Positions 15,601 through 38,641 of a stretch of 64,000 nucleotides of DNA are shown one piece after another. The position numbers and the translations under genes were made by a program. The DNA is from Elusimicrobiota bacterium (GTDB taxonomy: Bacteria > Elusimicrobiota > Elusimicrobia > UBA1565): NCBI GenBank assembly GCA_016212885.1, contig JACRDO010000132.1, forward strand, positions 28,779-92,778. The letters run 5' to 3'. How positions within the stretch are numbered: position 1 is the first letter of the stretch; every line of letters starts with the position of its first letter. The notes beneath the pieces were generated by a model that was not told the origin of the DNA, did no database searches, and saw only the letters and a program-made list of their open reading frames with translations.

Positions 15601-17077
15601 CAAGAAGAGGGCGGAGCAGCTTCTCGTTTCGCCCTCGGACCTCGTGCCGGCGACCGGGATCAACCAGGGACTCGAGGCCTCCGTCGCCAAGCTCGCCTTG
15701 AGAGCCTCGCGCAACAAGGTGGGCTGGACCCAGGTGAGGCTCGCCCGGATCGGGACCCTCAGCGATTCGGACATCGAGGAGGTCCGCCTCTATCGCGACG
15801 AGGACGCTTCCGGGGCCCTCAGCCCCGCGGATATCCTCATCGGCGCCGGAACCTACAACTCGGGCTCGGCGTCCATCGTGTTCGCCCCCGCCTTCGTGCA
15901 GACGATCACCCTCTCGACCCAGACCTACCTCGTGTCCTACAAGATCAAGCCCTCGGCGACCGTCAATGCCGTCGTCGGGCTCACCGTGGCAGAGTTCACG
16001 GTCGACAACCCGGACAGCGTCTCGCTGACGGGCCTTCCGTTCTCGACTTCGCTCGCGAAGATCCTCGATTCCCGAACGCCGAGCCGGCCCGTCGTGACGG
16101 TGGCTGACGGCGCGTTCAGCAGCAAGTCCGAATACCTGCAGTTCAACTGGCAGTCGAGCGTAGTGCTCGGGTATCTGGCGGGCGCCTTCTACGCGATCGG
16201 AACCACCACGGGAGGGACCGACTTGACGAATGGCTTCAAGCCGATCCGGGTCTCTGAGCTCTCCGTCCGAGCGACGGGCTTTGTCTTGCAAGACCAAACG
16301 ATGTACTACGTCTCCGTGAAGACCCAGTCGAACGAAGGCTGGTTCAGCCCCGTAGGCACCTCGAACGGGGTCTTCATGGACTTCGTCATCCCGCCGACCC
16401 CCGCGGCCAAGATCCACCCCCCCGGGGAGAGCACGCTTCGGGTCAGCTGGGGCTCGGTGACCGGCGGGCTCTCGGGCATCGCCGGCTACCGCATCGAGTA
16501 CCGCCGGGCGCAGAGCCCCGTGTGGTACAACGCGAAGACCAAGCAGCCGATTTCTGAAACCGGAGTCTCGGCAGCCGGAATGGGCGGGAAGGGGCTGCGC
16601 GCCGCGGCTGTCTCGCCCGATGAGCTCGTCACCGGAGTCTCGTACCAGGCCACCGACATGCCAAGCGGAACATTGTACGTGCGCATGCGCGCGTTTTCAA
16701 CCGCGGGCCTGGCCAGCGCGCCGACCGACCCGGAGAAGGTCCAGATGGGGCCGCCGGGGACGGCGGCCATCAGCCAGATATCCTGCGCTCCCAACCCGTT
16801 CGACTCTCGAACAAAGCATGGGTGCATCGTGTACACCCTCAGCCAGGATGCCGACGTGACCATCAGCATCTTCAATGTCTTCGGCGGCCTAATTAAGACC
16901 ATGTCGTATTCGGCCGGGTCCGCCGGCGGGCAGAAGGGGACCACAGATATCACGGCCTGTCCGGTGTTCTGGGACGGGACCGACGAGTCGGGACAGAAGG
17001 TCTCCAAGGGCATCTATCTGGCGGTCATCCAGTCCGGCGGGGCCAAGGAAATCCTGAAGATCGGCGTCATCCACTAG
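2..17077 (+). CDS. Giant secreted multi-domain surface protein (adhesin-like), 5'-partial, >5686 aa
   Basis: One uninterrupted frame runs from the window edge to TAG at 17075-17077. Codons 2-16 (AAKAA) continue the Kelch repeat pattern seen downstream, so the true start lies upstream of the window. Domain and repeat grammar is coherent along the whole length (see sub-features). Overlapping ORFs in other frames are Arg/Gly/Pro-rich artefacts. Confidence 0.9.
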   Translation, partial: AAKAAMTTARYSLAAAALSGKVYAVGGMGGTQKENEEYDPAANTWASKALMTTARNSLAAAAVGGKVYAVGGTGGTEKENEEYDPNVNTWASKTAMTTARSGLAAAAVGGKIYAVGGSGPSGANEEYDPATNGWTSKTALTIARSGLAAAAVGGKIYAVGGTNGVVLSSAAEYDPGSNTWSARAQMPTARQQLALAATGGKLYALGGIGGANNENKEYDPGFSQKFTGLTPNTLYTFKARGRNASGAETPETPAISTYTLALAPGGLVAASSFTNVASTGVRVNWSSGTPAGYNPIGTLYRLELATAASFTTLAGSSQTYNTYAGLTGLTPSTKPYFARVEAISGAGIPTSWLSLGSLSSGTLQVTISTFAGTAGNSYAIAWGDYDNDGNPDLAVANYGLNILLLRNNGNGTFAQSTILATAGNYTGIAWGDTDNDGLLDLAVAVNVGDEFILHNDGGGAFTPNTLTGSGGNSYAVAWGDYDNDGRLDLAVANDLAQDDYVARNNGNGTFAIVPLTQTLGNSRGIAWGDYNNDGYLDLAIGNTDKDVVIVRNNNGVSFSTFAVTGSGFANGGIAWGDYDKDGYLDLAFALNTGIVVLRNNGGDGTFAKNTISAPGSNAGVAWTDYNGDGRLDLAVSRSGGQAQILLRNDGGVSFTTVTFAGSAGGAVRGFSLGNFDLSGGPDIALANDGGSDELLLHNDDQLAHAAPGAPSAGFSATLQEYSLFSSSGILALSWGNGTDAETSTAALRYLLRIGTTVAGSSTTCKIPAKFGLDAGASGGSFLYSTRISSAAAGLRLILQKETTVYWAVMTQDGEGLRSAESAEQTAFLAAPGLVTDLRVSAIVSTGLGASSMTVTLQWTAPGDNGYSGAITNGAFEIRCSTTEAILSTSAYAAAQVAVSLATSVVPGALQTHSIPYLNAAATHYFALTMKDGFGARSALSNPATAQSYVLRLPASAGNLYGLAWGDYDGDGRPDMALSYYGGSVVLMHNDGSGAFTQTTVPGTSGSNTGVAWGDFNSDGRLDLAVAVDGSDEYVLRNNGDGTFTNVPVTGSGGRSYAVAWGDYDNDGLLDLAVANETAQDDLIARNNGNGTFTLVPLTQTIGNSRGAAWGDFNNDGFLDLAIANTDKDVVLARNLGNGTFSTGTIGGTGVSTAAAWGDYNNDNYLDLAVANSDGVALMRNKGDGTFAKVWIAGTAGNNAGLAWADFNNNGFLDLLVSRPGGSAQLLLRNNGDGTFTQTLLPLPGSNVVNVSWGDFDADGDLDIAAGSRGWIDAFIFRNDAALAHNAPAAPVSGFSATFQEYAAFSSTGVLTLSWGDASDVETPTSALNYLVRAGTVVSGSSATLKIPFNYGLDGAAGGGSFPYGTRVSALQRGLKFAGFSKGATIYWAVAAEDGEALRSGESAEQTANLTPPASVNNLAAAQDAAVETSSVSWVRLTWTVPGENGTSNPLLPGARYDLRWSTVAPVALESDYNRAPNQSLIPADGESPGATHTQLLAVTAGKTYYFAMTTLDSCNSRSGLSNAANIPMTAWLQEVITDAAPPAALQGDTTAFLKLRLWTNLGSLSWTKLRVRKLGTLPDAAVKNVAIYGDANTNGIFDSGDTAALYSGVPAVFASSAVTLAVQTVGQTISNSTRTYFLTLQLEPSYLPQDGSTAALKLDGEAFSVIGGGVLGTDFPGLLLDGIDDRVRASDSAVLDPPNQITLDAWVRTTDPGPNRSIITHSNASGTDGYRLWLNGSTCGAGVPTLFIGPSVLCANRGGSPVSIADDRWHQVSAVYSIAGGLGQLMFIDGEMLSTGPVTGSISDSASELGVGGPNNYAGNYLNGKIDEARISQTARYTSSFIPWRRSDTDYNTVLQYHFDAMDGTGTVVTDAAGQVTGILDGQARGYGRSTATVVVDAQDMMMSSATSLLPDTLYRNAVNVPVLKLQLWASQDNVIINRLSVAQTGTGASAGVANLRLYRDNGDGYFQPTLDQSLTLGQVFSVNKATFDLLGATPPAPQQVWSSTKTYFVVWDVTGGAETGKSLGLAISTDDFVLAGATDAVSTAAFPLRASTVPVVSARVYVTPETPPSAWVNVSSLVFIGDFTLGNVDHFYYLFDQNPGTQINGGGSETLWTIGKATATATADGSSWYFHVRAFDYLGQGGTQTDFGPYFVDRTRPTGASFVHFNSTGGALGQSQVNDLAQPVTAQLSVQDSGAGLNVVGPAPLAPSPGTVSLWRLDDTSGAVWKDSGPASISLSSVGVVSRGAGRFGSGVLLAGSGDLRSASPAGLPTGAVPRAIEAWINPVSTQGTLGLVSWGTSGAGTLMRFSMVSGQLAADMGGITVSGGPVLSTGVWQHAAFSYDGSAARLYLNGALAASQSVGALATALGTLFIGATESGGRFWGSIDEVRIMNSALADGQVYDDCTRGHPYFVAFSSSAGSSWQVVVATGAGAGARVGLDGAHGSTGPQTLKVKGLPLNVSTSSAAGALATNQVIFYQTDRAGNTNILGPYGILVDTNPQVAYSTPILPGDGMYTGARPWFEWTGPSTAITAGMGGANGLGGSFYLQVSSNDPTFADPNIVLSISTPAIMGDNTLPKVYGVYLSTHSLGEGATYYWRIRSKSFLDVLGPWGPWKSFVVDASTPAAANYRMYSATGGVVLEGQYTDLMLGVTAQTTVTDNLSGFSKSFRFDPAAGTVALWHFSERDGLAPKDASGNNNTAALLGISGGPPGYRTSPFGAGLRCGGSHVFRTSNAQFDFPANSNMTFEAWVNPDDVSGIQALGGVGSVTFPGGNWLLRISDGRLFFSNNTGFINSPAMMSAGVWQHIAMTLRGARVAFYINGVQVAAGLSGSGGNSGGPSVQPFTLCAAVDNDGVTYQSPYSGMIDEVRVLNYAADPLQIAADYAATLSGIYAVEYSTTAGASWIVVSATAPASGWAHLELGGSEGSVGPEAWSVRNLQLVHSTSAAIGYQATNQIRFSVPDRAGNTRLSGPYAAIVDTTVAAAVSTPSYPANGAFLTQQPNFLWSGPSTKTASGMGLAASYFLEAAADPAFASPVISISTPVIIQSTFAAATFGAYLSTYTLMDATTYYWRVRSRDFLGLLSPPLSVSSFVTDLGAPAGSAFRSFNSTGGATAEDLVNNLTSNVTAYVTFQDPGSGLKVSPAAGAMPFGVIYSTTGGAGNSAWVDGGRTAEGGLPESWWDPTVATITALATFQSRLYAGAAGPGRTFEYDGTQWSQSGTFPSDVLTLKEFRGKLYAGLSGGSVYSFDGISWNLAASLPAARVNALAEHNGRLYAATGAEGQIFAFDPDAGGWYEVFRATEPEFFSLKSYNGRLFAGAGPDIYSFDGSTWTVTNWIGGSARAFEVYRGRLYAGTNISGYIYAYDGSVWTRPLDISEDFNRALGVFGGRLYLGASLPSNGRIYMYDGNTGPGGLLVYTLPTPADSIYAIASYGNRLYLGGTSPSGAKVYVSTPLAVSLTGLDGAKTPEQLKITGLNPIQSVNANICNGNWACTATNQVRFTAADQAGNIGQAGPFAILVDPSLSPPTALYPPSGSFVRSSSPTFVWAESSAMSIHNVQVSSQAAFTNLSLDSIANTPAYTSPVALANATTYYWQVRSRSPSGIYSAFSAVNAFVMDLSRPTTSVFLHFGSTGGPLAESQFGNLAAGVTVEITLQDIVSGLDRGPRRQPVSGAAALYPFDEGFGMYASGLGGEYRLAFSSGASWAPGLISSAVLTGGATYLYNASPNYNPAWPAVGLPIAGGTRTIEAWIYPLDGQGGGILHYSDFRLHISGSCSGPVPGNSYLCVNASQGAAYTFTPSQWHHVAYTYAGGTHTLYADGILLGSFQQMLNTPGAGPIFVGTATDCGAFRGRIDELRILAKALSAAEVDSGYRLSGAFRVSYSSDGGANWTVVTATAPAWGPHLVLSGPPGSTAPQTLRLENFSLAQSTILATGAYGTNQVVFSVSDQAGNEATAGPFTVLVQTSVPQPILTSLTPRSTESIFATAIATDPLSGVMEYRFEASPNKTFAPPVSTSPWVAVSTYLPTALLGWASASSYTFTGLASATTYYVRVTVHDNLSNLSPPSDVGKVAGFAVDAATSTYGSVFFSTKSVAPASALQNTDVAMLKFMLATPLGSSSQFYSLTVRKTGTAPDAAMQKALIAIDNNGDGIYTKGVDAVLAEAPFTNSVATLSLAAAGNSENLGPALKTFFIAYRVTTDAQPGLTVGVDNITEADFGLQFPSRAEGPFPTNVPLIPIADGPNALTVTAFNLAPAEVQPNTLNVALLRLSAATDTGTSIISTMTWRLQASQPFNQLTGLTLWRDKNGNGLFEPGIDERVTSGNDSFTNGYSTMALTTPEISSRTVKTSAVNYFLSANVSASAPQGTTFRIALSTPPDVRLENPLDTVSFTQIPIITSSCTIIQNNIVWISTTDLSPGAYGQTYFQGNLYSVLRATLSVDIGFAEINQVTMDRTGDAQQDDVQYVAVYRDQNLDGGPLNPVVDVFLGSAMFDPLKKATIDITTATVAAGATTVFFIAYQINPAASPGRTLGGSMTNSSYFHTSNPASVVSSVTMDGSSLFEIKTATAQIEATQNQMKIPLAQSAAPGAIDQVANDIGMLRVDMVSDRNNFNWLSLIVRSIGTALDSDVRNVRVFRDDGNGLFSASSDTAISDISQTFTGGQVNIPLSIPQAVTGSTQTYFVTLSLNPSAVPGRTVGVVIPSTASFNVSSPNKVSSQTALGPFAGGPVAINQFANTIAVSTRGITPPLGAVPGARNVGLLDLTLKTNVSNAGWAGLKIDQAGSASDSDITEVKVYYDLNNSGFFDPANTQQYLLVSSTGQRFGQVQAGSVDIVFPSTPSLGPAPQRYFVAVDLADDATPGKTVALRAISKDYFVPVAPNQFGPVSFNSQPPMDQVEIKAPPALMYVLGTSSAPAEVAQGTANVVMAALKVWMSSYTGQWTQLSVDRSGAGIDSDISGVKLFYDTNGNGRLDVMTDERISTASFIGGTAALMFSTQTITTSSRTYYLTYDLSMTAVGDHAVGAAINAPGLLAVAMPNSVSSDNFPFASAASRVVTTRADLFVVGQNKAPGMLIQGATNQVMLSLQLSTTEHAILWSGLTVRSLGTAADSDISSVHIWKDVNADGFLEADMDQDMTSGLNGFLGGSAVVSLITAQTISMAPMRYLVTVDVASCASPSASFGLTLAATNAFSVNAPNTVVDSGFPISSVVVSLKKRAEQLLVSPSDLVPATGINQGLEASVAKLALRASRNKVGWTQVRLARIGTLSDSDIEEVRLYRDEDASGALSPADILIGAGTYNSGSASIVFAPAFVQTITLSTQTYLVSYKIKPSATVNAVVGLTVAEFTVDNPDSVSLTGLPFSTSLAKILDSRTPSRPVVTVADGAFSSKSEYLQFNWQSSVVLGYLAGAFYAIGTTTGGTDLTNGFKPIRVSELSVRATGFVLQDQTMYYVSVKTQSNEGWFSPVGTSNGVFMDFVIPPTPAAKIHPPGESTLRVSWGSVTGGLSGIAGYRIEYRRAQSPVWYNAKTKQPISETGVSAAGMGGKGLRAAAVSPDELVTGVSYQATDMPSGTLYVRMRAFSTAGLASAPTDPEKVQMGPPGTAAISQISCAPNPFDSRTKHGCIVYTLSQDADVTISIFNVFGGLIKTMSYSAGSAGGQKGTTDITACPVFWDGTDESGQKVSKGIYLAVIQSGGAKEILKIGVIH
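1090..4590 (+). repeat. Internal tandem duplication of a ~580-aa module (FG-GAP/VCBS propeller plus Fn3-like tail) in the giant CDS
   Basis: Copy 1 spans about 1090-2860 and copy 2 about 2870-4590. Each has 8-9 FG-GAP units (AWGDYDNDG.LDLAVAN....L.RNNGNGTF) followed by AH(A/N)AP.AP..GFSAT(L/F)QEY...LSWG...AL.YL.R.GT. Some stretches are nearly identical between copies (LTGSGGNSYAVAWGDYDNDGRLDLAVAN vs VTGSGGRSYAVAWGDYDNDGLLDLAVAN). The period is about 1740 nt. Confidence 0.8.
6465..11880 (+). repeat. Four copies of a ~465-aa super-repeat (Ig-like / LamG / Ig-like / Fn3-like) in the giant CDS
   Basis: Units start near 6465, 7858, 9272 and 10840, each opening with F..(F/Y).STGG........(N/D)L...VTA...(V/F)QD..SGL. 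Next comes a LamG/ConA-like block (..(E/D)AW(I/V)NP....W(Q/H)H.A..Y.G....LY.NG.......(I/G).IDE(V/L)R(I/V)). Then come (Y/F).V.YS...G..W.VV...TNQ(V/I).F...D.AGN....GP....VD and P..G.......P.F.W.GPS....YYW(R/Q)(I/V)RS. In the third unit the LamG block is replaced by a beta-propeller. Confidence 0.7.
9540..10345 (+). other. Second beta-propeller-like region (about 8 blades of ~40 aa) replacing LamG in super-repeat unit 3
   Basis: Recurrent (F/Y).(G/N)(R/K)LY(A/L)G......G.(I/V)Y.(F/Y)DG..W units, e.g. FRGKLYAGLSGGSVYSFDGISW, YRGRLYAGTNISGYIYAYDGSVW and FGGRLYLGASLPSNGRIYMYDG. Confidence 0.6.
12230..16060 (+). repeat. Array of 8 tandem ~160-aa modules, each with an embedded D.N.(D/N)G..D Ca-loop-like motif; family not recognised
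   Basis: Period is 460-500 nt. Each unit has (V/A).(M/L)L(K/R)(F/L).L........W..L.V...GT..D.D(I/V)..V.(L/V)(Y/W).D.N.(D/N)G.(F/L)(D/E)....D......F......(L/V)......(I/V)......TYF(V/L). Loop motifs sit near 12410, 12880, 13375, 13870, 14350, 14850, 15310 and 15790. Two more diverged copies lie near 4660-5000 and 5760-6130. Confidence 0.7.
16780..17074 (+). other. C-terminal FlgD-Ig-like / T9SS-type sorting domain (CTD) of the giant protein
   Basis: The terminal ~95 aa read CAPNPFDSRTKHGCIVYTLSQDADVTISIFNVFGGLIKTM.....WDGTDESGQKVSKGIYLAVIQSGGAKEILKIGVIH. This matches the NPF...(I/V).Y.L.....V...I(F/Y)...G.L(V/I)..L......WDG.D..G..V..G(I/V)Y signature of FlgD_ig / Por secretion tail domains. Confidence 0.7.
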
Positions 17078-17195: not shown

Positions 17196-18773
17196 ATGTT
17201 CGCAAGGTTTATTCCATTGGCGCTTCTGGCTCTGGCGCTGCGGGCCTCGCCCGCGTGGGCCCAGGCGATCGGAGGCCAGCCCGGCGAGATATTCTCCTTC
17301 GGGGCCGGGGCCCGGGCGCTCGCCATGGGCTCGGCCTACACGGCCGTGGTCAACGACGTATCTTCGGTCTACTACAACCCCGCCGGGCTCGGGCTTCTGC
17401 CGGCGCGGGAGATCTCCCTCATGCGGGCGTTCCTCTACGGGGATGCGACCTACGACTACATCGCCTACGCGCAAAACAACCGCAAGAACGCCGGCGGCTG
17501 GGGCGCCGAGTTCATCCAGTTCAAGGTCGGCGGGGCGAGCGGGCGCGACCAGGACAACAACGAGACCGGGCAGTTCGGCTACTCTGAAAGAGCCTTCGGC
17601 CTCGCGGCAGCCTGGCGCGGGCTCCTGCACCCGCGGCTCTCCCTCGGCGCCAAGGTGAAGATGATGCAGCGCGGCTTCAGCGGCGCCGGCAACGCCGCCT
17701 CCGACAGGCTCTTTGGCATCGACTTCGGCGCGCAGATGGGGCCGTGGGTCGGCGAGCGCCTCATGCTCGGACTCATAGTGCAGAATGTGATGGGCTTCAA
17801 GCAGGGCGACACGGAGGATTCCCTCAAGCTGCTGCTGCGCCTCGGCGCGGCCTACAAGGTCATCGGGCCGCTCTCCGTCGCGGCCGATGTCTCCAACAAC
17901 AGGGAGTTCCGCGTGGGGACGGAGTACTCCATCGGGTTCCTGGCTCTCCGGGTCGGCCTCGCCCAGCAGGGCATGACCTTCGGCGGAGGGCTGCTCTTCA
18001 AGAACCGTTATTCCGTGGACCTGGCGATGCTCAACCATCCGACCCTCGGCATGTCGCAGAGGATCTCGCTCGGCTACCGGTTCGCCGGCGCCGCGGGCGC
18101 GGGCGAGAAGTCGAAGAAGATGCGGTTCTACGCCGAGGAGTTCCTCGCCAACGCCCAGGCCGAGCTGAAGAAGAGGAACTACCTCAAAGCCCTCAACGAC
18201 TTCTCCGCCGGCCTCGGCATCGACCCCAAGCGCGGGGCCGAGTGGCGCTCGAAGACCGACCGCCTGCGCCGGCTCCTCAAGCGGATGGGCCTCGAGGCCC
18301 ATCCGGAGGACAGCGCCACGCTCGCAGAGGACTCGCAGCCCGCCGTCGTAGCTTTCGCGGCCATAGAATCCTACATGGGCCGGGAGGAGGAGCGGGCGAT
18401 GACTCTGGCCCACGCGGCGGTCGGCCTGGATACCGCCAAGGGCGCCTTCGGACGGCTGCTCGACTCGCTGGCAGCGCTGACGGGACATGCGATCCAGCGC
18501 GACCAGCTCCTGCCGCCGCTGCGGCTGGCGGAGTTCAAGATGAAGCGGGCCATGGACGCCATCTATGCCCGCAGGTTCGAGGCGGCCGTGACCCTGCTTC
18601 GCGAAGCCCTCTGGCTCGACCCCGGCAACGTCATGGCCTGGACCCGGCTCGGCTCGGCCTTCTTCGCCTCCGGGGACCGCCCGAAGGCCGCGGAGGCGTA
18701 CCGAGAGGCGCTCCGGCTCAACCCGGCCGATGAGAAGCTGAGGCAGTTCGTCAGGTCCCAGGGGTTGGAGTAA
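17196..18773 (+). CDS. Outer-membrane beta-barrel protein, PorV/PorQ (FadL)-like, with C-terminal TPR-like domain
   Basis: Signal peptide MFARFIPLALLALALRASPAWAQ. The N-terminal motif GARALAMGSAYTAVVNDVSSVYYNPAGLG is typical of FadL/PorV/PorQ-type barrels. An amphipathic strand pattern runs to about residue 300 (..QRISLGYRF). A ~220-aa helical TPR-like tail follows (AWTRLGSAFFASGDRPKAAEAYREALRLNPAD). Confidence 0.55.
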   Translation: MFARFIPLALLALALRASPAWAQAIGGQPGEIFSFGAGARALAMGSAYTAVVNDVSSVYYNPAGLGLLPAREISLMRAFLYGDATYDYIAYAQNNRKNAGGWGAEFIQFKVGGASGRDQDNNETGQFGYSERAFGLAAAWRGLLHPRLSLGAKVKMMQRGFSGAGNAASDRLFGIDFGAQMGPWVGERLMLGLIVQNVMGFKQGDTEDSLKLLLRLGAAYKVIGPLSVAADVSNNREFRVGTEYSIGFLALRVGLAQQGMTFGGGLLFKNRYSVDLAMLNHPTLGMSQRISLGYRFAGAAGAGEKSKKMRFYAEEFLANAQAELKKRNYLKALNDFSAGLGIDPKRGAEWRSKTDRLRRLLKRMGLEAHPEDSATLAEDSQPAVVAFAAIESYMGREEERAMTLAHAAVGLDTAKGAFGRLLDSLAALTGHAIQRDQLLPPLRLAEFKMKRAMDAIYARRFEAAVTLLREALWLDPGNVMAWTRLGSAFFASGDRPKAAEAYREALRLNPADEKLRQFVRSQGLE

Positions 18774-18786
18774 CAAAAAGGCAATG

Positions 18787-18802
18787 AAAGCCCCGGCTTT
18801 TT
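18787..18802 (+). terminator. Weak hairpin plus T-tract after the barrel gene (AAAGC-CCCG-GCTTT-TT)
   Basis: 5-bp stem, 4-nt loop and a short T run, 14 nt after the stop codon. It is too weak to assert termination. Confidence 0.2.
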
Positions 18803-18823
18803 CCTGCATACTTGAGCGGTGAC

Positions 18824-21331
18824 ATGGACGCTGTCATCATCGTCCTGATCCCGGTGCTGTTCCTGACGCTGGCGGCCAGCATGCTGGTCGTCAGCCAGGT
18901 TTCCGGCTTCTTCCAGTCCAACAAGTACTCCCGCAAGCGCCAGCAGGACCGCATGGAGATCCAGCGGTTCATGGCCCAACTGGCCGGCGCGCAGAGCCAG
19001 GTCTTTGCGCGCAGCAAGGAGCTCGAGCGGCTCTCGGCGAACCTGCAGCTCAGCAACCAGGAGCTGGCCCGGCTCAACAGCATGAAGACGAAGTTCCTGT
19101 CGATGGTTGTCCACGATATGAGGACCCCGCTTGCCTCCATCAAGGGGTTCGGCGAAATGCTCAGCCGCCAGACGCTCCCGGCGCAGCAGACGAAGTATGT
19201 GAACTATATCGTCAGCGGCACGGACCAGATCAACCAGCTGATGGCCGACCTCACGGACCTCGCGGTCATCGAAGCAGGCAAGCTCAAAATGGAAAAGCAG
19301 CCATTCGCCTTGTCCGACATGGTCAATGACCTCGTGCCCGGGATTGGCCTGCAGGCGCAGAAGAAGGGCGTGATTTTCACGGCGCCGGAGCCGCCGCGGG
19401 GGATCACCGTAATCGGGGACAGCTTCCGTCTGCGCCAAGCGCTCCAGAACTTCCTCACCAACGCGGTCAAATTCACCCCCGCGGGGGGAAAAGTCGAGCT
19501 GAGGGTCAGCGTGGGCCCGCGGGGCGCGCTGTTCCAGGTCAAGGACACGGGCCCGGGCATCCACGCCTCCGAGCGCAAGCGCATCTTCGAGAAGTTTTAC
19601 CAGTCGCAGTTCGGGGACCCGAAGGCGCGCCAGAAGGGCTGGGGGCTCGGCCTCTCGATCGCGCAGGAGATCATCCGCTCGCACCAGGGGGAGATGGGGG
19701 TGGATTCCGCCGGGCTCGGCAAGGGCGCCACCTTCTGGTACCGCATCCCGCTCAAGCCCTCCAGGATGGCGGCCTACGCGCTCGCAAAGACCGCGGCGGC
19801 CGTCCTCCTGCTGGCCCTGCTCCTGCCGGGGGCCCGGGCCCAGCAGACGCTCCCGATCGAGGAGAAGGCGAAGTTCGAGAAATCCCTCGAGGACCGCGCC
19901 AACACGATCCTGCTCCACATCCTGGGGCCCAACCGCGGGCGTGTCGTAGTCGACGCCACGCTCGACTTCACCCGCATCGAGAAGTTCGACGTCAAGAGCG
20001 GAGCCGTATCGCCTGACCGGGAGACCCTCTACCTCTGGGAGAAGGTGGGAGCCCAATCGGGCGGCCAGGACCTGCTCCCGGGCATCCCGCCCCAGGAGCA
20101 GCTGCCGAACGCGAACCTGGCGCGCTCCTACGAGCGGCAAAACTCCTTCCCGACGGCCTTTATCAAGAGACTCAAGGTGACGGTTATCTTGGACGGCGCT
20201 GTCGGCGCCGACCAACGCAAGATCATCACGGATGCCCTGACGGAGGCTCTCGACCTCAAGAAAGATCGGGGAGTGGATGCAAACGGCTTCACGCTCAAAG
20301 ACGAAATGCTGATCGTTCCCGCCACCTTCGCCCCCGCATGGAAGACGGTCTGGTACACCCCGGAATCCGCAAGCCTCCTCTTCAAATACGCGCTCATCAG
20401 CCTGATGACGCTGATCACCCTCATCGTCGTCGCGGCCTGCTTCCTGAAGCTCGCGGAGGCGATGGACTCGATGGCGCAGGCGCAGGCCCATCAGCTCCAG
20501 ATGGACTTCGGCCAGCAGGGCGCCGACCTCGCCGGGAAGGAAGAGGAGGAGAAGAAGAAGAAGGAGGAGGAGGCCAAAGCCGAGAGCGCGGAGGCCGCCT
20601 CCACCAAGATCGTCTTCAACGTCAAGGTGGAGCAGATCGAGACGCTCATCGAGATGGTGCGCAGCCAGGACGCGGAGAACATCTCCCTCATCGCCGCGCA
20701 CCTCCCGCCCGACGTCAAGAAGGCGTTCCTGGCCAAGCTCCCGCCGAGCGTCTACAGCGAGGTGATCTTCTATCTCGGCCGCGTGCGCTTCATCGACCAG
20801 GAGGTTGTCTCCACCGTCAAGGACGAGCTGGAGCGGCGCCTGGAGAGCGCGGTCGGCGGCCGGTCGAACCTCCTCGGCATGATCGAGGCCTCGGACCTCA
20901 AGTCCAAGCGCGAGCTCCTCAAGCTGCTCGAGGAGCGCGACCCCGACCTTGCGCGGCAGCTGCGCGAGCAAATCCTGCTCTTCGAGGACCTCTCGGACCT
21001 CGAGGAGAAGGACTGGTCCTTGGTCTTCTCGGTCGTCACGCTCGAGGAATGGGCCTTCGCGCTCTACGATGCCCCGGAGGATCTGGTCGAGGCGCTCAAG
21101 AGCCAGATGCTTCCGAAGACCTGGGCCATCCTGTCCCAGATGATGCAGGTGGGCCGTCCCTCGGAAAGGGCCATCGAGGAGGCGCACGAGCGCATCGTCA
21201 ACTCGGTCTGGAAGCTGGTTCAGGACGGCCGCATCACCAACCCCATCACCCGCCGCATCGAGCGCATGGCCGCCCGGCCGAAGGAAGAGGGCCCTCCCCC
21301 CTTGGTCGAGGGCGCCGCGGAGCTGGGCTAG
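18824..21331 (+). CDS. Fusion protein: membrane-anchored histidine kinase + FliF RBM3-like periplasmic ring domain + FliG (middle and C-terminal)-like domain
   Basis: The frame is open from TTG 18812 / ATG 18824 to TAG 21329-21331 with no internal stop. N-terminal TM helix (AVIIVLIPVLFLTLAASMLVV), coiled coil, H-box FLSMVVHDMRTPLASI, N-box NAVKFT, G1 DTGPGI, G2 GWGLGLSIA. From M at 19766 there is a TM or signal-like helix. Next comes LEDRANTILLHILGPNRGRVVVDATLDF...IKRLKVTVILDG...TM, colinear with FliF RBM3, beta-collar and TM2. After a Glu/Lys-rich linker, a region aligns end to end with FliG_M and FliG_C (ISLIAAHLPPDVKKAFLAKLPPSVYSEVI...; LLKLLEERDPDLARQLREQILLFEDL...WAFALYDAPEDLVEALKSQM). 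Confidence 0.8.
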   Translation: MDAVIIVLIPVLFLTLAASMLVVSQVSGFFQSNKYSRKRQQDRMEIQRFMAQLAGAQSQVFARSKELERLSANLQLSNQELARLNSMKTKFLSMVVHDMRTPLASIKGFGEMLSRQTLPAQQTKYVNYIVSGTDQINQLMADLTDLAVIEAGKLKMEKQPFALSDMVNDLVPGIGLQAQKKGVIFTAPEPPRGITVIGDSFRLRQALQNFLTNAVKFTPAGGKVELRVSVGPRGALFQVKDTGPGIHASERKRIFEKFYQSQFGDPKARQKGWGLGLSIAQEIIRSHQGEMGVDSAGLGKGATFWYRIPLKPSRMAAYALAKTAAAVLLLALLLPGARAQQTLPIEEKAKFEKSLEDRANTILLHILGPNRGRVVVDATLDFTRIEKFDVKSGAVSPDRETLYLWEKVGAQSGGQDLLPGIPPQEQLPNANLARSYERQNSFPTAFIKRLKVTVILDGAVGADQRKIITDALTEALDLKKDRGVDANGFTLKDEMLIVPATFAPAWKTVWYTPESASLLFKYALISLMTLITLIVVAACFLKLAEAMDSMAQAQAHQLQMDFGQQGADLAGKEEEEKKKKEEEAKAESAEAASTKIVFNVKVEQIETLIEMVRSQDAENISLIAAHLPPDVKKAFLAKLPPSVYSEVIFYLGRVRFIDQEVVSTVKDELERRLESAVGGRSNLLGMIEASDLKSKRELLKLLEERDPDLARQLREQILLFEDLSDLEEKDWSLVFSVVTLEEWAFALYDAPEDLVEALKSQMLPKTWAILSQMMQVGRPSERAIEEAHERIVNSVWKLVQDGRITNPITRRIERMAARPKEEGPPPLVEGAAELG

Positions 21332-21334
21332 GCT

Positions 21335-22459
21335 ATGGCGGAGAAAGTCGACTTCCTTCTCGCCTCCCTGCGCGGCCAGCCACCGCCCGAGGCCCCGCCG
21401 TCCGTCGAGGCCCAGGCGGCTGCGGCCGCCTCGGAAGAGCAGCTCGCCCCTCTGCGCTCGAAGGTCGAGGAGCTCGAGCGCAAGCTCGCCGAGCTCTCGG
21501 CGCCGCCCGCCCCGCCGGAAGGCGCGGAGGCTCCGGCGGAGCCGCCCAAGCCGCCGACCGAACTGATGATGTTCCTGCACACGCGCATGGAGCTTCTCGA
21601 GCGCCGCCTGGAGCTCGCCCAGCAGGAGGCCCTGCGGGCCAACCTGGTCCTCCGCGAGCGCGAGGAAGCGCAGAAGAAGGCCCAGGGCGAGGTCGAGGAG
21701 CTCTTCCGCTCGATCCGCGAGCAGGAGCGCTCGGCCCGCTTCGACCGGAGGCTGCGCGAGCAGTACTCCGCGACCCACTCCCGCGTGGAGGAGCTGGAGG
21801 CCCGGCTGGCCATGGCCCAGCTGCGCATGGTCCCCGCCGACGAGGTTCTCCGGTCTATCGAGAGGGAGGAGGGCTTGGGCGAGCTCCGTTCCCGGCTGAA
21901 GGAGCAGCTTTCAAGGATGTCCGGGGGGGAGCCGTCCGTCGGCGCCCCGGCGCCGGCCCCGCCCCCAGCGCCTCCGGCAGGGGCCCCGGACCGGCCCGAG
22001 GGACCCGCACGGCCCGCGCAGGACGCCCCGTTCAACTATAGCGAGCTTCCGCCCCTTTCCATCGTGACGGCCAAGATCGCCGATCTTGAGCTTCGGCTCG
22101 CGGAGGCCGAGAAAGCCCGCGAGAAGGAGCGCCAAAGCCGCCTCCTCTGGGAGAACAACGTCCTTCAGGCGCTCCGGCAGTCCTCCGGCCGCTGGCAGAA
22201 AGCCGGCGGAGCCGGGCTTCTGGTGGAGGCGACTTTGGAGAGTATGGTAGAGTTGCTCAAGAAGAGGGACCTCCTCGCCGGGGAGACGGCTCAGATCCTG
22301 GACAGGCTCCGGTCCGAGCCGCCGGGCTCGGGGGAGGAGCCCCTCCTGCGGGCGCGGCTCGCGGAGCTGCGCAAGAGCATCGAAGAGCTCCAGGGCGAGC
22401 TCGACAAGAAGATGGCGATCGTCAACGCCTGGACCGAGCGGAATAAAGGCAAGGATTAA
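21335..22459 (+). CDS. Coiled-coil / proline-rich protein of unknown function
   Basis: ATG lies 3 nt after the preceding stop. Heptad-rich Glu/Arg/Leu segments (VEELERKLAEL, RMELLERRLELAQQEALRANL, IADLELRLAEAEKAREKERQ) are separated by Pro/Ala linkers. No recognisable family. Confidence 0.6.
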   Translation: MAEKVDFLLASLRGQPPPEAPPSVEAQAAAAASEEQLAPLRSKVEELERKLAELSAPPAPPEGAEAPAEPPKPPTELMMFLHTRMELLERRLELAQQEALRANLVLREREEAQKKAQGEVEELFRSIREQERSARFDRRLREQYSATHSRVEELEARLAMAQLRMVPADEVLRSIEREEGLGELRSRLKEQLSRMSGGEPSVGAPAPAPPPAPPAGAPDRPEGPARPAQDAPFNYSELPPLSIVTAKIADLELRLAEAEKAREKERQSRLLWENNVLQALRQSSGRWQKAGGAGLLVEATLESMVELLKKRDLLAGETAQILDRLRSEPPGSGEEPLLRARLAELRKSIEELQGELDKKMAIVNAWTERNKGKD

Positions 22460-23197
22460 ATGGACATTACGACACTCTCCGGCATCGTCGGCGTCTTAGC
22501 CATGGTGCTCATCGGGGGCTTCACCGGCGAGCTCTCCGCGGTCTTCCTGAACGCGCACGGCATCGTGATCGTCTTCGGCGGGACCGCCGTCGCCATGCTC
22601 ATCAATACGCCGCTGCGCTATGTTCGGGAGACGCTCCTGGCGTTGGCGGAGCTCTTTCGGGGAGACCGCTTCAGCGACCCGGGCGAGCTGATCCCGGTGC
22701 TGGTGCGCCTTTCCGAGCAGGTCCAGGCGCACGGACTCGGGGCCCTGCGGGGCATCGACGAAAGGGCCGCGGGCGGCTTCCTCGGCCAGGCCGCCACCAC
22801 TGCGATGGAGTACAACAACCCCGACTTCGTCCGGCGCGTGCTGGAGACCGAGGTCAACAACAGGGTGGACCGGGCCAACGAGGTCATCAACGTGGTCCGC
22901 ACCATGGGCGTTGTCGCACCGATGTTCGGCCTGCTCGGCACCCTCATCGGCATCGTGCGGGTCATGGCCGTGCTCACCGACCCGGTGAAGGTCGCCCCGG
23001 CCATGGCTGTCGCCATCACCACGGCCTTCTACGGCATCGCCTTGGCCAACCTGGTGGCGGTCCCCATGGCCGGCAAGATGCGCTTCAGGCTGTGGGAGGA
23101 GATCAAGGTCCGGGCGATGGTCATTGAGGGCGTCATCGGCATGATGCAGGGCACGGTCCCCCTGGTGCTCGAGCGCCGCCTGCAGGCTTTCAAATAG
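22460..23197 (+). CDS. motA: MotA/PomA-family stator channel protein (4 TM)
   Basis: 245 aa. It has TM1-TM2, a ~100-aa cytoplasmic loop, then TM3-TM4 with MGVVAPMFGLLGTLIGIV and APAMAVAITTAFYGIALANLVAVPMAGKM, the MotA-type signature. The start abuts the previous stop (0-nt gap). Confidence 0.85.
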   Translation: MDITTLSGIVGVLAMVLIGGFTGELSAVFLNAHGIVIVFGGTAVAMLINTPLRYVRETLLALAELFRGDRFSDPGELIPVLVRLSEQVQAHGLGALRGIDERAAGGFLGQAATTAMEYNNPDFVRRVLETEVNNRVDRANEVINVVRTMGVVAPMFGLLGTLIGIVRVMAVLTDPVKVAPAMAVAITTAFYGIALANLVAVPMAGKMRFRLWEEIKVRAMVIEGVIGMMQGTVPLVLERRLQAFK

Positions 23198-23200
23198 ATC

Positions 23201-23881
23201 ATGGCCGTCTACCGCTTCAGGAAGGAGGAGCTCGAGGGACATCTCAACAGGAACGCCCTCTGGGCGATCGTCTACGGGGACATGATGAGCTACCTCATGA
23301 TCCTCTTCCTCCTCCTGCTCTCCACCGCGCTCATGAAGAACGTCAAGAAGGAGGATAGGCCGGAGGTCGAGAAGTCCCTCATGGAGATCCAGGTGGTCTT
23401 CGGCGGCAAGGTGGACAAGGCGTACGAGGAGAAGAGGTCGCGCGACGAGAAATTCTTCAAGATCTCCGAGGCGCTGAAGGGGATGCAGAGCGCCAACGTC
23501 AGCGTCATCGCCACCGAGAAGCTCGTCCGCGTGCAGCTCGGGGAGGGCGTTCTCTTCGACTCCGGCAGCGCGGAGCTCAAGGAGAGCGCCGCGCCGCTGC
23601 TGGAGCCTATCGCCAAGCAGATGCTCGTCCCCGACAACCAGATCCGCGTCGAAGGCCACACCGACACCGTCCCTATCCGAAAAGGCAAGTACAAGTCCAA
23701 CTGGGAGCTCTCCATGGCCCGCGCCTATTCGGTCGTCCGGACGCTCGAGGGGATGGGCGTCAAGCCGGAGCGGCTCTCCGGCATCGGCTACGGCGAGTAC
23801 CGCCCGGTCGCCGCCAACGACACCCCTGAGAACAAGGCCAAGAATCGCCGCATCGAGATCAACCTGCTGCGGTCGGAATAG
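23201..23881 (+). CDS. motB: MotB-family stator protein with OmpA-like peptidoglycan-binding domain
   Basis: The N-terminal TM carries the conserved Asp (WAIVYGDMMSYLMILFLLL). The C-terminal OmpA-like domain reads VLFDSGSAELK...IRVEGHTDTVP...SNWELSMARAYSVVRTL...GYGEYRPVA.N.T.....NRRIEI. Confidence 0.85.
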   Translation: MAVYRFRKEELEGHLNRNALWAIVYGDMMSYLMILFLLLLSTALMKNVKKEDRPEVEKSLMEIQVVFGGKVDKAYEEKRSRDEKFFKISEALKGMQSANVSVIATEKLVRVQLGEGVLFDSGSAELKESAAPLLEPIAKQMLVPDNQIRVEGHTDTVPIRKGKYKSNWELSMARAYSVVRTLEGMGVKPERLSGIGYGEYRPVAANDTPENKAKNRRIEINLLRSE

Positions 23882-23897
23882 TATAATCTGCCGGCCC

Positions 23898-24593
23898 GTG
23901 CGCGCGCTCATCCTAACGGCGGATAACGCCTTTGCCCTCAGGCTGACGGGCCTGCTGAGAGGCCTGGGCTTGTCTGTCGATGTCCTCCACAGCCTCTCCT
24001 CGGCCGCGGCCAGGACCCGCTGCGAGCTGGCGGTGGTGGATTGGGACGCGGTCCGCTCCGGGCCGGCCCAGGCCCTCCCGCGCCTGCGCGGCTTGGCGTG
24101 GAGGGTGGTCCTCCTGGCAGGGGCCGATGTCGTCTATGGGCCGCAGATGGCCGAAGCGCTCGCCTGGGGGGTCTGCGACGTCGTCTTGAAGACCCTCAAG
24201 GATCCGGCCCTGGCGGGCCGGATCGCGGCTCAGCTTAAGTCCCGGCGCTACTCGGCGATCGAGCCGCGAGGCTGCGGATTGCGGCTGGACAAGGCGGCCC
24301 GGCGGGTGTGGGCGCGCCGCGGACGCGGCTGGAAGGAGATCCCCGCCCTGCCGCCCAAGGAATTCGATCTCCTGTGCGCCTTCTTGGAGCACCCGGGGGC
24401 GGCGCTCCGGCGCGCGGCCCTCCTGGAGCGCTTCTGGCCCGGGAGATCCGGCGACGTCAACCCGGAGACCGTGGACCGGCACGTCCAGCGGCTCAGGCGC
24501 CGGCTCGGGGCCGTCGGGTGGCTGATCGTTTCGGTGCGCGGCGTCGGCTACCGCTTCAGTTTAGGAGAGAGTCCCCATGACAAACGCGGATGA
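23898..24593 (+). CDS. OmpR/PhoB-type response regulator (receiver with partly degenerate active site + winged-helix DNA-binding domain)
   Basis: GTG start. The receiver has the phospho-acceptor context LAVVDWD and the Lys (DVVLKT). However, the acidic pair reads AD-N and the conserved Thr/Ser position reads A (VVLLAG). The C-terminal trans_reg_C-like region reads KEFDLLCAFLEHPG...R..L......G......ETVDRHVQRLRRRL......I.SVRGVGYRF. Confidence 0.7.
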   Translation: MRALILTADNAFALRLTGLLRGLGLSVDVLHSLSSAAARTRCELAVVDWDAVRSGPAQALPRLRGLAWRVVLLAGADVVYGPQMAEALAWGVCDVVLKTLKDPALAGRIAAQLKSRRYSAIEPRGCGLRLDKAARRVWARRGRGWKEIPALPPKEFDLLCAFLEHPGAALRRAALLERFWPGRSGDVNPETVDRHVQRLRRRLGAVGWLIVSVRGVGYRFSLGESPHDKRG

Positions 24594-26138: not shown

Positions 26139-26612
26139 ATGAAGGGATTCTCCCTCCTCTGCGCGATCCTCTTGGCCGCGTCGGCTGGGGCGGGCGGATG
26201 GAAGGCCCGCCGGTTCGAGAGGACCTATGAGAATGGCCGGCTGAGGATCGAGGTCAAAGTCCCCGGGGACTGGAAGCTTAAGGAGAACCCATCCTCCCTC
26301 ATCTGGACAATGCCGGAGCGGGAGGGGGAGGCTTTCGCGATCCATTGGCTGAACCCGGACCGCATCTACGACGTCGAATCCATCTGCCGCTCCGGGATGT
26401 GCGTCGACGAGGCGGCCTTGAAGGACGCTTCGGGCTCCAGGATCCGGATCGCCAGGCCCACGCCGGAACGCCAAAGCGCCATGGGCCTCTCCAAGGATTT
26501 CCTTTTCGCGGAGCCAATCAATTCGAAGGACCGGATCACCCTCTGGTTCACCACGGACCATCTGCCCAGCGCGATGTTCAGGAAAGTCCTTTCCACGCTG
26601 AAACATCGCTGA
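26139..26612 (+). CDS. Secreted hypothetical protein
   Basis: Signal peptide MKGFSLLCAILLAASAGAGG. Amino-acid composition is normal for a real protein. No family recognised. Confidence 0.5.
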   Translation: MKGFSLLCAILLAASAGAGGWKARRFERTYENGRLRIEVKVPGDWKLKENPSSLIWTMPEREGEAFAIHWLNPDRIYDVESICRSGMCVDEAALKDASGSRIRIARPTPERQSAMGLSKDFLFAEPINSKDRITLWFTTDHLPSAMFRKVLSTLKHR

Positions 26613-28179: not shown

Positions 28180-29028
28180 ATGACTCGTTCTCCGCCTTGG
28201 GCGCTCGCGCTGGCGTTGTTGCCGCTTTTTATGTCCGGGGCTCGTGCGCAGACCTTGGACCAGCTCCGGCGCATGGCGCCGGACTCCGGCGCTTTGACCG
28301 CCCCGGTCATCTCCGCGGAGGGGCCGGCGCTGGACAGCGTCCCTCCCAAGGCCTACCGTCCCCCTGTGCGGCCGCTCGGACAAGCCCAGCCGCCCGGGGT
28401 CCCGGACGCGACGGTGGCGCTCGCTGATGTCCGCAATCGGCACTGGAAGACGACGGACGGCTTCGGCGCGGGAGATGACCGGATCCATCTCAGCGCGCAT
28501 TTCGACCTGGAAGGGAACGCCTACCTGTCCGTGATGGCCGCCTCCTGGGAGCTGCCGTACTTCTACCTCTTCAAGCGCGGCATGAGCGGCTGCTGGGAGA
28601 GCCGCGGCGCGCGCTATCACATGCGCCTGGACGTGAGCATCTGGCGCGCGCGCACGAGCAACATCGTCGAGATCTACCGGGAAGGGGAGAATCATCCAAC
28701 GTATGCCGCCAGGATCATCGACATCCTCGCCAAGGCCTACGAGACCGGCAGGGAGATCCGGCTCGGGAAGAGGGCCTACCGGCTGTTCTATTCCTGCAGC
28801 GTGGACGGCTCCAAGACCCCGGCCGAGGCCGACACCCGGCGCATGGGCATCGCCCTAGTGGAGGATGTCGGCAAGCGGGGCGAGCACGATTTCAATCCCT
28901 ACATCTTCCCGGCCGCGGACATCGGGAAGGCGAAGCTCTCCCGCTATCAGCTCGCCAACGGGCAGACGGTCGGCTTGAAGCTCTCGCAGGACGGGGCGTC
29001 CCTTCTGATCTACGGCTTGAGCGATTAA
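28180..29028 (+). CDS. Secreted hypothetical protein
   Basis: Signal peptide MTRSPPWALALALLPLFMSGARAQ. No family recognised. Confidence 0.5.
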   Translation: MTRSPPWALALALLPLFMSGARAQTLDQLRRMAPDSGALTAPVISAEGPALDSVPPKAYRPPVRPLGQAQPPGVPDATVALADVRNRHWKTTDGFGAGDDRIHLSAHFDLEGNAYLSVMAASWELPYFYLFKRGMSGCWESRGARYHMRLDVSIWRARTSNIVEIYREGENHPTYAARIIDILAKAYETGREIRLGKRAYRLFYSCSVDGSKTPAEADTRRMGIALVEDVGKRGEHDFNPYIFPAADIGKAKLSRYQLANGQTVGLKLSQDGASLLIYGLSD

Positions 29029-33160: not shown

Positions 33161-33347
33161 CTGCGATGATAGGATAGCGCGGGCGGGGTTCGGGCGCCTG
33201 GGCCGTTCATCCGAATATCGGGGTTCTATTGGGCTAGATTCCGGTAGGACCAAAGACTTCGGCGTTTTGCCGTTTAGACCCAAGGTGTTTTCGCCCGCCG
33301 CGTGTACAATGGATTCTTGAAGGGGCCGACACCCGGAGGTGCGGGCA

Positions 33348-35826: not shown

Positions 35827-35853
35827 GCGGGAAGGGTAGCATATTTGCTTAAA

Positions 35854-35883
35854 TTGACAGGCTTTTTCGGTTATTTGTAGAAT
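35854..35883 (+). promoter_or_regulatory. Sigma70-like promoter for the atp operon: TTGACA-N18-TAGAAT
   Basis: TTGACA at 35854-35859 and TAGAAT at 35878-35883, in the AT-rich divergent gap between the GGDEF gene and the first atp gene (ATG 35905). Confidence 0.5.
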
Positions 35884-35904
35884 TGTTTCGCTTTGTTTTT
35901 TGCC

Positions 35905-36129: not shown

Positions 36130-36154
36130 CGCGGGCGAAGCGACAGCGGCGTCT

Positions 36155-38636: not shown

Positions 38637-38641
38637 AACCC

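Follow-up and report, generated by a model that had tools for sequence, protein, structure and literature searches.

A MotA/MotB stator pair linked to a predicted FliF–FliG fusion protein in Elusimicrobiota: a putative non-flagellar rotor–stator module of the cell envelope

Introduction

Do a flagellar-type stator pair and the FliG-like protein encoded close to it form a functional pair when the charged residues expected at their contact have changed, and, if they do, what might they drive? The question is raised by the motA and motB genes at positions 22460-23881 of a 64,000-nucleotide stretch of DNA (hereafter the window; contig JACRDO010000132.1, positions 28,779 to 92,778) from an Elusimicrobiota bacterium. 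The first-pass annotation of the window left undecided whether the two components belong together or are neighbours by chance. The flagellar rotor–stator pair is usually taken as flagellum-specific, and to our knowledge the other MotAB relatives (Tol, Exb, Agl, GldLM, Zorya) operate without FliG or FliF. Here we report that the stator and FliG-like genes belong to a conserved gene set together with the genes of an outer-membrane beta-barrel and a giant surface protein, and that MotA and MotB, on balance, probably serve as the stator in an ion-driven rotor–stator module that is not flagellar but is coupled to an envelope or adhesin system.

Free-living and magnetotactic Elusimicrobiota without flagellum structural genes have been reported in a preprint to carry homologues of motAB, flbD, and fliG, the role of which is called “unclear” (10.1101/2022.07.08.499144). 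PomA-type stators (“FIT/TGI4”) are counted as flagellar in a 2025 survey of MotAB diversity, in which Elusimicrobiota are not mentioned (PMC12505986), and the only known FliF–FliG fusions have been engineered (PMC11481574, PMC10941966). Apart from one passing remark (10.1101/2022.07.08.499144), our literature search, which left most subscription-journal papers outside its reach, returned no description of the module.

The stator pair

MotA (22460-23197, + strand) is a PomA-like protein of 245 aa with four transmembrane (TM) helices, the second and third of which flank a large cytoplasmic domain. It matches Pfam MotA_ExbB (4e-22) and MotA_N, and solved MotA/PomA chains in the Protein Data Bank (PDB) align with it end to end (2e-32 to 3e-28). 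The gene of MotB (226 aa; 23201-23881, +) follows after a gap of 3 bp, and its product has one TM helix, the channel aspartate D27, a plug (MotB_plug, 4e-8), and an OmpA-type peptidoglycan-binding domain (OmpA, 6e-22; both Pfam). D27, which lies in the motif YGDMMSYL and corresponds to E. coli D32, is unchanged in all 21 relatives compared, and MotA P154 and P202, the equivalents of E. coli P173 and P222, are invariant throughout the related loci. The invariance of these three positions indicates that the ion-conducting core of the stator is intact and under selection. Neither protein reaches an NCBIfam equivalog cutoff: the best match of MotA is PomA PRK08990 (147 bits against a cutoff of 341), and that of MotB is MotD PRK09038 (155 bits against a cutoff of 283).

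An open reading frame (ORF) of 471 aa runs antisense to the pair (22496-23911, −) and is most likely a high-GC artefact, as it did not pass the codon-position GC filter, unlike every accepted gene of the locus. Other long antisense ORFs over real genes, of up to 1,071 aa (18563-21778), are typical artefacts of DNA with 66% GC, which is the GC content of the window.

The rotor protein

FliG_M and FliG_C were matched in only one of the window ORFs scanned with Pfam (those up to position 54567), in keeping with the first-pass annotation, which had noticed a single FliG-like domain nearby. They form the C-terminal part of an 839-aa protein (18812-21331, +; annotated start probably 18824), which is 100% identical to NCBI HY922_12930 from an Elusimicrobia bacterium metagenome-assembled genome (MAG) and has about 80 full-length relatives at 100-37% identity. 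From the N-terminus, its layout consists of TM1, a histidine kinase, TM2, a FliF RBM3-like periplasmic domain, TM3, an acidic linker, FliG_M, and FliG_C.

The cytoplasmic kinase core (aa 91-315; 19082-19756, +) comprises HisKA and HATPase_c (Pfam, 1e-16 and 3e-25, respectively). Its H-box, N, G1, and G2 boxes are intact in the window protein, and the corresponding motifs (HD(M/V)RTPL, N(A)xKFTP, DxGxGI, and GWGLGL) are kept in all 23 kinase-bearing rows of the family alignment; an intact fused HisKA/HATPase core is present in about 75 proteins. As a sensor, the kinase has only TM1 and a coiled coil, with no sensor domain of its own.

The periplasmic part (aa ~345-515; 19844-20356, +) resembles the ring-building RBM3/collar region of FliF. 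A family profile matched Salmonella FliF (6scn_A, residues 242-462) with an E value of 6.5e-5, the AlphaFold2 (AF2) model has the fold alpha-beta-beta…beta-beta-alpha-beta, and Foldseek retrieved 6sd1_A, the “RBM3/collar region” of FliF (E 1e-4, TMt 0.60). Pfam YscJ_FliF_C is sub-threshold in the window protein, though it is recorded for many homologues. The FliG middle and C-terminal domains (aa ~606-821; 20627-21274, +) were recognized by Pfam matches to FliG_M (2e-8) and FliG_C (2e-16), matches to PDB 1lkv at 7e-17 with the single sequence and 6e-34 with the family profile, and Foldseek matches to 1lkv (4e-10) and to 1qc7 with a root-mean-square deviation of 1.2 Å. The AF2 model of the whole protein, with a pLDDT of 73 overall and of 80-95 in the domains, contains both the RBM-type alpha/beta fold and the FliG_MC fold.

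Three parts of an ordinary flagellar rotor are missing. In flagella, RBM1 and RBM2 of FliF house the export gate, the N-terminal domain of FliG (FliG-N) binds the C-terminus of FliF, and the EHPQR motif is the FliM-binding surface. The periplasmic segment of the 839-aa protein is only about 170 aa long and matches RBM3 alone by profile, AF2, and Foldseek, so that RBM1 and RBM2 are absent; Pfam returned no FliG_N match in the protein, which instead has an acidic linker of about 50 aa after TM3. At the EHPQR position the window protein has QDAE and Y, and the EHPQ/R motif was found in none of about 77 family members, vs. 37 of 37 ordinary FliG controls. Judged by sequence and by structural model, FliF and FliG are naturally fused in the 839-aa protein, of which RBM3 and FliG_MC are the only parts retained from the two.

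The envelope partners

Upstream of the rotor gene lie two genes for predicted envelope proteins. The first encodes a giant surface protein of at least 5,691 aa (2-17077, +), whose frame continues past the left edge of the window, so that the N-terminus and any signal peptide are out of view. The GC content at third codon positions (0.89) supports its being a real gene, and Pfam detected Kelch, FG-GAP, Laminin_G_3, and fn3/Ig domains, as well as a C-terminal Ig-like domain of the FlgD_ig type (16820-17032, +; 4e-7). In NCBIfam searches, the tail of the protein matched the PorU C-terminal region (4e-9) and the PorZ tail (8e-4), and it scored 18.4 bits (1.6e-3) against Por_Secre_tail TIGR04183, below the cutoff of 23; PF18962 or PF13585 is precomputed on several homologues. 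The Kelch/FG-GAP/LamG layout recurs in the giant gene (3,850 aa) of a distant system, L120. Many small stand-alone proteins (about 130 aa; P0332, P0350, P0359) that contain little beyond a FlgD_ig-like domain were seen on long Elusimicrobia and Endomicrobiales contigs.

The second gene encodes a PorV/FadL-like outer-membrane beta-barrel of 525 aa with a signal peptide and a C-terminal TPR domain (17196-18773, +). It matched NCBIfam PorV_fam (1.3e-22, 80.8 bits against a cutoff of 90) and Pfam UPF0164 and TPR, and its homologues are labelled “PorV/PorQ family” by NCBI. The AF2 model has a pLDDT of 84.7, and its best fold match in the PDB is PorV in the SprA–PorV translocon (6h3i_F, E 3e-9, TMt 0.59), followed by FadL. 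The extra TPR domain, which is not typical of PorV, would be periplasmic.

Conservation of the gene cluster

In our expanded search, the order of giant protein, PorV-like barrel with TPR, reduced FliF–FliG fusion, (coiled-coil protein), MotA, and MotB recurs in more than 100 loci of Elusimicrobiota and one Candidatus Saganbacteria MAG. An exhaustive HMMER search for the rotor family in 1.84 billion cluster representatives (clusters at 50% identity) gave 254 clusters at E<1e-30. Among the 150 matches listed, most span almost all of the query and, at 480-700 aa, are stand-alone fusions of the reduced FliF with FliG that have no kinase; roughly one in four is fragmentary or matches only in part. 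A scan restricted to one genome per species yielded 29 loci, all of which carry Elusimicrobia-type content, the few with other taxon labels looking mis-binned. The related loci fall into three types.

Type I, to which the window belongs, has the order giant protein, PorV/TPR, histidine kinase–FliF–FliG fusion, coiled-coil protein, MotA, and MotB wherever the contig suffices. One clade has a split arrangement, with PorV/TPR, the histidine kinase, MotA, the FliF–FliG fusion, further genes, and then MotB; in L007, L009, L013-L017, L019, and L021, the kinase is encoded by its own, adjacent gene. At the corresponding position, L001-L027 have relatives of the giant protein, with alignments of up to about 2,300-2,500 aa, and a giant ORF is present in the upstream flank of most loci with enough sequence, L071 and L075 being exceptions. 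Among 59 loci compared, 49 have the PorV-like gene as the immediate upstream neighbour of the FliG-like gene.

Type II loci (FliG 25-30% identical) encode a giant protein, PorV/UPF0164 with TPR, a FliF–FliG–TPR fusion, a long protein of another kind at the position of the coiled-coil protein, FlbD, MotA, and MotB. They keep flbD directly upstream of motA (11551-11775 in L033; 14423-14644 in L059), as in ordinary flagellar control loci. The retention of this arrangement in type II and the loss of flbD in type I suggest that type II is nearer to the flagellar ancestor. In the type II locus L059, two tandem MotB paralogues follow MotA (15507-16879). Type III loci have nothing at the coiled-coil position, the FliF–FliG gene being followed directly by motA and, in L115, L117, and L118, also by motB. 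A PorV-like gene and a giant or FlgD_ig-ending gene lie upstream in L118, L119, and L120; in L115 and L117, FliG is seen with MotA and MotB after it, but without PorV-like or giant genes. In L119, the Candidatus Saganbacteria MAG, a LysM-domain protein (5271-5792) stands at the MotB position, and in L120, a 262-kb Elusimicrobiota contig, MotA is followed by an extracytoplasmic function (ECF) sigma factor, an anti-sigma factor, RseB, and a histidine kinase (11574-15521), with no adjacent MotB. Neither type II nor type III systems have the fused kinase, and no genes for export apparatus, rod, hook, or switch were found in the related loci with gene calls.

The linkage of these genes has persisted through fusion, fission, rearrangement, and divergence to about 25% identity, which is strong evidence that they work together. 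The question of a functional pair or chance neighbours is thus answered by gene order, which is conserved in types I, II, and III and marks the proteins as a functional set; it shows the pairing of MotAB with FliG much more strongly than the residue charges do.

Charges at the rotor–stator contact

Residue numbering was fixed with E. coli motA and fliG, and FliG residues were mapped by three agreeing alignment methods (phmmer to PDB, MAFFT, and hmmalign), with FliG of E. coli, T. maritima, and A. aeolicus as references. The equivalent of the torque helix, MLPKTWAILSQMMQVG (aa 765-780; 21104-21151, +), places K769 at R281, S775 at R287, Q776 at D288, and M777 at D289 of E. coli FliG; outside the helix, K264 corresponds to Y752 and R297 to E785 (the gapped phmmer alignment gives S784 instead). 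Of the five canonical FliG charges, the window protein has lost four, and position 281 alone stays positive. The alignment to the E. coli residues, a check proposed in the first-pass annotation, therefore bears out most of what had been read from the sequence: of the four residues described there as neutral (Arg/Asp/Asp/Arg), three have indeed lost the canonical charge (D288, D289, and R297), but the equivalent of R281 is a lysine. In MotA, E. coli R90 (PomA R88) is replaced by Q89, and E98 (PomA E96) by R97, a reversal of charge. The stator pair, which had been described as canonical, is so in its four TM helices, its D27, and its OmpA domain, but not in the residues that face the rotor.

Both partners changed together across the family, as judged from 27 FliG and 24 MotA sequences of type I. 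In these, FliG position 264 is aromatic or His, 281 is Lys (23/27), positions 287-289 read E-Q-M/S, and 297 varies, while MotA has Q, H, or R at position 90, R or K at 98 (20/24), and D at 101 (23/24; D100 in the window protein). The Glu at FliG 287, present in 20 of the 27 (the window protein has S775), stands where ordinary FliG has K/R. Type II has R/K/Q at FliG 264, G at 281, K-E-E at 287-289, and T at 297, with H/R/K at MotA 90 and E at MotA 98 (11/13); the five type III examples each have a different charge pattern. Ordinary controls have K/R at FliG 264, R at 281, K-E-E at 287-289, and R at 297, with R at MotA 90 and E at MotA 98; R281 and K/R297 were found in 37 of 37 control FliG proteins, and R90 and E98 in their 9 neighbouring MotA proteins. 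One retrieval pattern, made from a five-sequence alignment, covered FliG 286-292 and biases the K-E-E and E288/E289 counts in the controls and in type II, so that conservation of E288/E289 in the controls is not independent evidence; the type I set was retrieved via RBM3 motifs and is unbiased.

On this sequence comparison, MotA and its FliG-like partner have both departed from the canonical charge pattern, as a family trait, and a K-T-W motif in FliG and D101 in MotA are new, family-specific conserved residues. It is possible that the pairing in type I was re-wired, with MotA R/K98 facing FliG E287 and MotA D101 facing FliG K281. The first-pass annotation had proposed that either the MotA loop has co-varied with FliG or the contact is of a different kind, and the first part of this holds insofar as both MotA contact residues have changed. 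An analysis of mutual information with average product correction (MI-APC), covering 81 MotA loop columns and 90 FliG_C columns in 49 non-identical pairs from five groups (24 type I, 12 type II, 5 type III, and 8 ordinary pairs), gave no signal, the hypothesised pairs ranking 817th to 4169th of 7290. A score for canonical charge complementarity in the same 49 pairs was equal to that of within-clade and global shuffles. There is no usable co-variation signal because clade structure dominates and the pairs are too few, and the expectation that co-variation would prove the pairing directly was not borne out. Single interface charges in E. coli and Vibrio were reportedly found individually dispensable in mutagenesis by the Blair and Homma laboratories; the loss of the textbook pairs is therefore no argument against torque generation.

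Other genes of the window

The genes from the PorV-like barrel through to an OmpR-type regulator are separated by gaps of 0-38 bp. Between the rotor gene and motA, a 374-aa coiled-coil protein rich in Pro and Ala is encoded (21335-22459, +), which has no signal peptide and no family match in Pfam or NCBIfam. Homologues directly follow the FliG gene in 18 other type I loci, and jackhmmer ties the protein to type I only, suggesting a type I-specific accessory; a PADLOC match of this protein to LmuB was rejected as compositional. Downstream of motB lies the OmpR-type winged-helix regulator (23898-24593, +; Trans_reg_C 2.5e-18, no Response_reg match), whose degenerate receiver has neither the acidic pair nor the equivalent of Lys105 and is, from its sequence, probably a pseudo-receiver independent of phosphorylation. 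It is present in 10 type I loci including the window, and its presence in only some loci makes its membership of the system doubtful. The regulator gene overlaps by 17 bp the start of a gene for a major facilitator superfamily (MFS) transporter, which is common to the window and its closest relative only. A scan for promoters and terminators over 16.8-26.7 kb gave nothing above shuffle expectation.

No flagellar families were found in the other window ORFs scanned with Pfam, which extend to 54567 and do not include the small ATPase-operon ORFs at 42510-42857 and 49535-50218. Among the scanned ORFs are recG, the genes of an F-type ATP synthase operon, and a gene for a GGDEF regulator. The operon (36175-44275; a, b, delta, alpha, gamma, beta) is split between alpha and gamma, where a gene for an NAD-dependent epimerase/dehydratase (40389-41519) is inserted. 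The GGDEF regulator, a response-regulator–GGDEF protein and putative diguanylate cyclase (34861-36216, −), lies 10 kb downstream of the motor cluster. Four ORFs without Pfam match have gene-like codon bias: 26139-26612 (+; 157 aa), 28180-29028 (+; 282 aa), 30527-33283 (−; 918 aa), and 52807-54567 (+; 586 aa).

Proposed function

If MotA and MotB are the stator of a non-flagellar module, as we favour, its working can be sketched from the homologies described above. Stator units of MotA5B2 type, anchored to peptidoglycan via the OmpA domain of MotB, would conduct ions past MotB D27. The RBM3-like domains, whose fold is supported by the structural comparisons, would build an S-ring-like ring in the inner membrane, and the FliG_MC domains would form a cytoplasmic track that is pushed by MotA. 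As FliG is covalently joined to FliF, FliG-N is dispensable, and without RBM1/2 and EHPQR neither an export gate nor a FliM/FliN switch can be accommodated. The contact between MotA and FliG would be made without the canonical R90–D288/D289 and E98–R281 salt bridges, possibly through the R/K98–E287 and D101–K281 pairs mentioned above. More speculatively, the periplasmic face of the ring may engage the TPR domain of the PorV-like protein, which in turn may hold the giant protein by its Ig-like C-terminal domain. Proton-motive force might thus move, tension or hold, or export the giant surface protein, as suggested by analogy with PorV and its C-terminal-domain substrates, SprB/SprF, and GldLM gliding, and the kinase fused to each rotor subunit in the subfamily of the window may report the state of the rotor. 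By this analogy, the most likely role would be the delivery of energy from the proton-motive force across the periplasm to hold, move, or export the giant surface protein.

A further step can be taken only tentatively. It is possible, though we consider it doubtful, that a flagellum-derived rotary motor, in which MotAB stators turn a minimal FliF–FliG ring without export gate, rod, or switch, drives or loads the PorV-like protein and its bound giant adhesin-like protein. It would so constitute a new class of trans-envelope machine for surface motility or secretion, built from flagellar components and others resembling type IX secretion, present in Elusimicrobiota and at least one member of the Saganbacteria.

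Several observations weigh against the explanation that we favour. The analysis gave no direct sign of rotation, ring formation, or physical contact between MotA and FliG. The hypothesised contact pairs left no trace in the co-variation analysis, and the canonical pair 98/281 bears like charges in type I. The linker between TM3 and FliG_M, about 50 acidic residues that AF2 predicts to be disordered, would be a poor transmitter of torque, and the analysis turned up no gene for a component that could be seated inside the RBM3 ring or upon it. As the coiled-coil protein, the regulator, and the kinase are each missing from some loci, they cannot be core to the mechanism. On the envelope side, the likeness of the giant tail to C-terminal domains of the type IX secretion system (T9SS) is below family thresholds, and SprA/Sov, PorK/N, and PorL/M (GldL/GldM) were not found among the window ORFs and related loci scanned with Pfam. 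Finally, the genome-wide absence of flagellar genes rests on the general statement of one preprint.

Alternative explanations

The alternative that survives best is that the assembly is a rotor-coupled sensor, in which ion-driven torque on the ring or its stalling, reflecting for example envelope load or the level of proton-motive force, rearranges the fused kinases and thereby controls the phosphorylation of a response regulator and the expression of the surface protein. That an intact kinase core is fused to the rotor in so many proteins, remains adjacent even where it is a separate gene, and has no sensor domain of its own would suit this explanation, as would the frequency of regulators among the neighbours (OmpR-like proteins, CheY in L033, and the ECF sigma factor, anti-sigma factor, and kinase in L120). 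However, types II and III keep the PorV-like protein, the giant protein, MotA, and usually MotB without any kinase, which makes the kinase an add-on rather than the purpose of the module. The adjacent regulator, with its degenerate receiver, is moreover not present in many of the loci. We thus regard a sensor as an unlikely primary function.

Considerably less probable is a genuine, if unusual, flagellar motor, in which the fusion would be the MS-ring/C-ring and the other flagellar genes would be found in a different part of the genome. Each of the three proteins has its homologue in the flagellum, rings are known to assemble from engineered FliF–FliG fusions (PDB 8z4d; PMC11481574, PMC10941966), type II keeps flbD-motA-motB as flagellar loci do, and full flagellar gene sets exist in a few Elusimicrobiota (10.1101/2022.07.08.499144). 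But RBM1/RBM2 and FliG-N are missing, no member has EHPQ/R, the adjacent genes code for PorV-like and giant surface proteins and in no case for flagellar ones, and homologues are reported in genomes without flagellar structural genes (10.1101/2022.07.08.499144).

The loss of interface charges on both sides, with no compensating pattern detectable, could also be taken as the drift of flagellar leftovers under relaxed selection. Such decay is very improbable given the intact reading frames, the invariant channel residues, the number of full-length relatives and of clusters recovered by HMMER, the newly conserved residues in MotA and FliG, and the synteny with non-flagellar partners. A Zorya-like defence system or a TolQR/ExbBD-type energiser unrelated to FliG is hardly credible, for although MotB matches ZorB models (7e-25) and the coiled-coil protein beside MotA loosely recalls the ZorA tail, PADLOC gave no ZorA match for MotA and no ZorC or ZorD, the short PomA-type MotA aligns over its full cytoplasmic domain with flagellar MotA/PomA structures (classification per PMC12505986), and the ZorB matches reflect general MotB homology.

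Comparison with known systems

The proposed module shares with the core of the flagellar motor an RBM3 domain, a FliG_MC with an equivalent of the torque helix, a PomA-type MotA, and a MotB with channel Asp, plug, and OmpA domain, and the two likely share the principle of an ion-driven MotA wheel pushing a FliG ring. It differs in lacking RBM1/2, FliG-N, and EHPQR, hence a FliM/FliN switch, in having no export apparatus, rod, hook, or filament genes nearby, and in the replacement of the charges at MotA R90/E98 and FliG K264/D288/D289/R297. Furthermore, FliF and FliG are one polypeptide with a histidine kinase at its N-terminus, and its neighbours are PorV-like and giant proteins. Covalent joining of FliF and FliG is also found in engineered Salmonella and Vibrio fusions (PDB 8z4d/8z4g; PMC11481574, PMC10941966), which form S-rings and so show that the architecture is workable. 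Those constructs use full-length FliF and FliG, whereas the fusion described here is natural, and retains only RBM3 with its two TM helices from FliF and only the M and C domains from FliG.

Among systems outside the flagellum, there are parallels with the T9SS and Bacteroidota gliding (GldLM/PorLM, SprA–PorV, SprB/SprF), where a proton-driven inner-membrane motor of 5:2 type is genetically tied both to a PorV-family barrel and to a giant surface protein that is repetitive and has an Ig-like domain at its C-terminus. By contrast, the module has a MotAB stator and a predicted FliF/FliG ring in place of GldLM, and a TPR domain on its PorV-like protein; neither SprA/Sov and PorK/N nor PorU/Z were found near it, the phyla differ (Elusimicrobiota and Saganbacteria), and the likeness of the C-terminal domain is sub-threshold. 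Myxococcus Agl–Glt, Tol-Pal, and ExbBD-TonB likewise use MotAB-family channels to energise an outer-membrane or surface process across the periplasm, but they are built from TolQR/ExbBD-type units with condensed cytoplasmic domains and a rod of the TolA/TonB/GltG type, and have no FliG or FliF homologue. Zorya (ZorAB) is a further MotAB-family complex outside motility, distinguished by the long C-terminal tail of ZorA and the partners ZorC/D; the module has neither a ZorA match nor a defence-island context.

Implications

Overall, a FliG–MotA torque pair appears to be kept, at its bare minimum and tied to outer-membrane and surface proteins, in lineages reported to be non-flagellated, and the core of a flagellar motor seems to be re-used for a non-flagellar job. 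If the module rotates, it would be a natural minimal motor of one rotor polypeptide and MotAB, attractive for structural and single-molecule work, and a natural experiment on which stator–rotor contacts are required, as the textbook salt bridges are gone. Rotation would also bear on the co-option of flagellar parts, or on their role before flagella. If the tentative interpretation as a new class of machine is true, the kinase built into every rotor subunit of one subfamily would be a direct read-out of rotor state. The module could explain the presence of motAB and fliG genes in free-living and magnetotactic Elusimicrobiota, and hence how these cells might move or attach.

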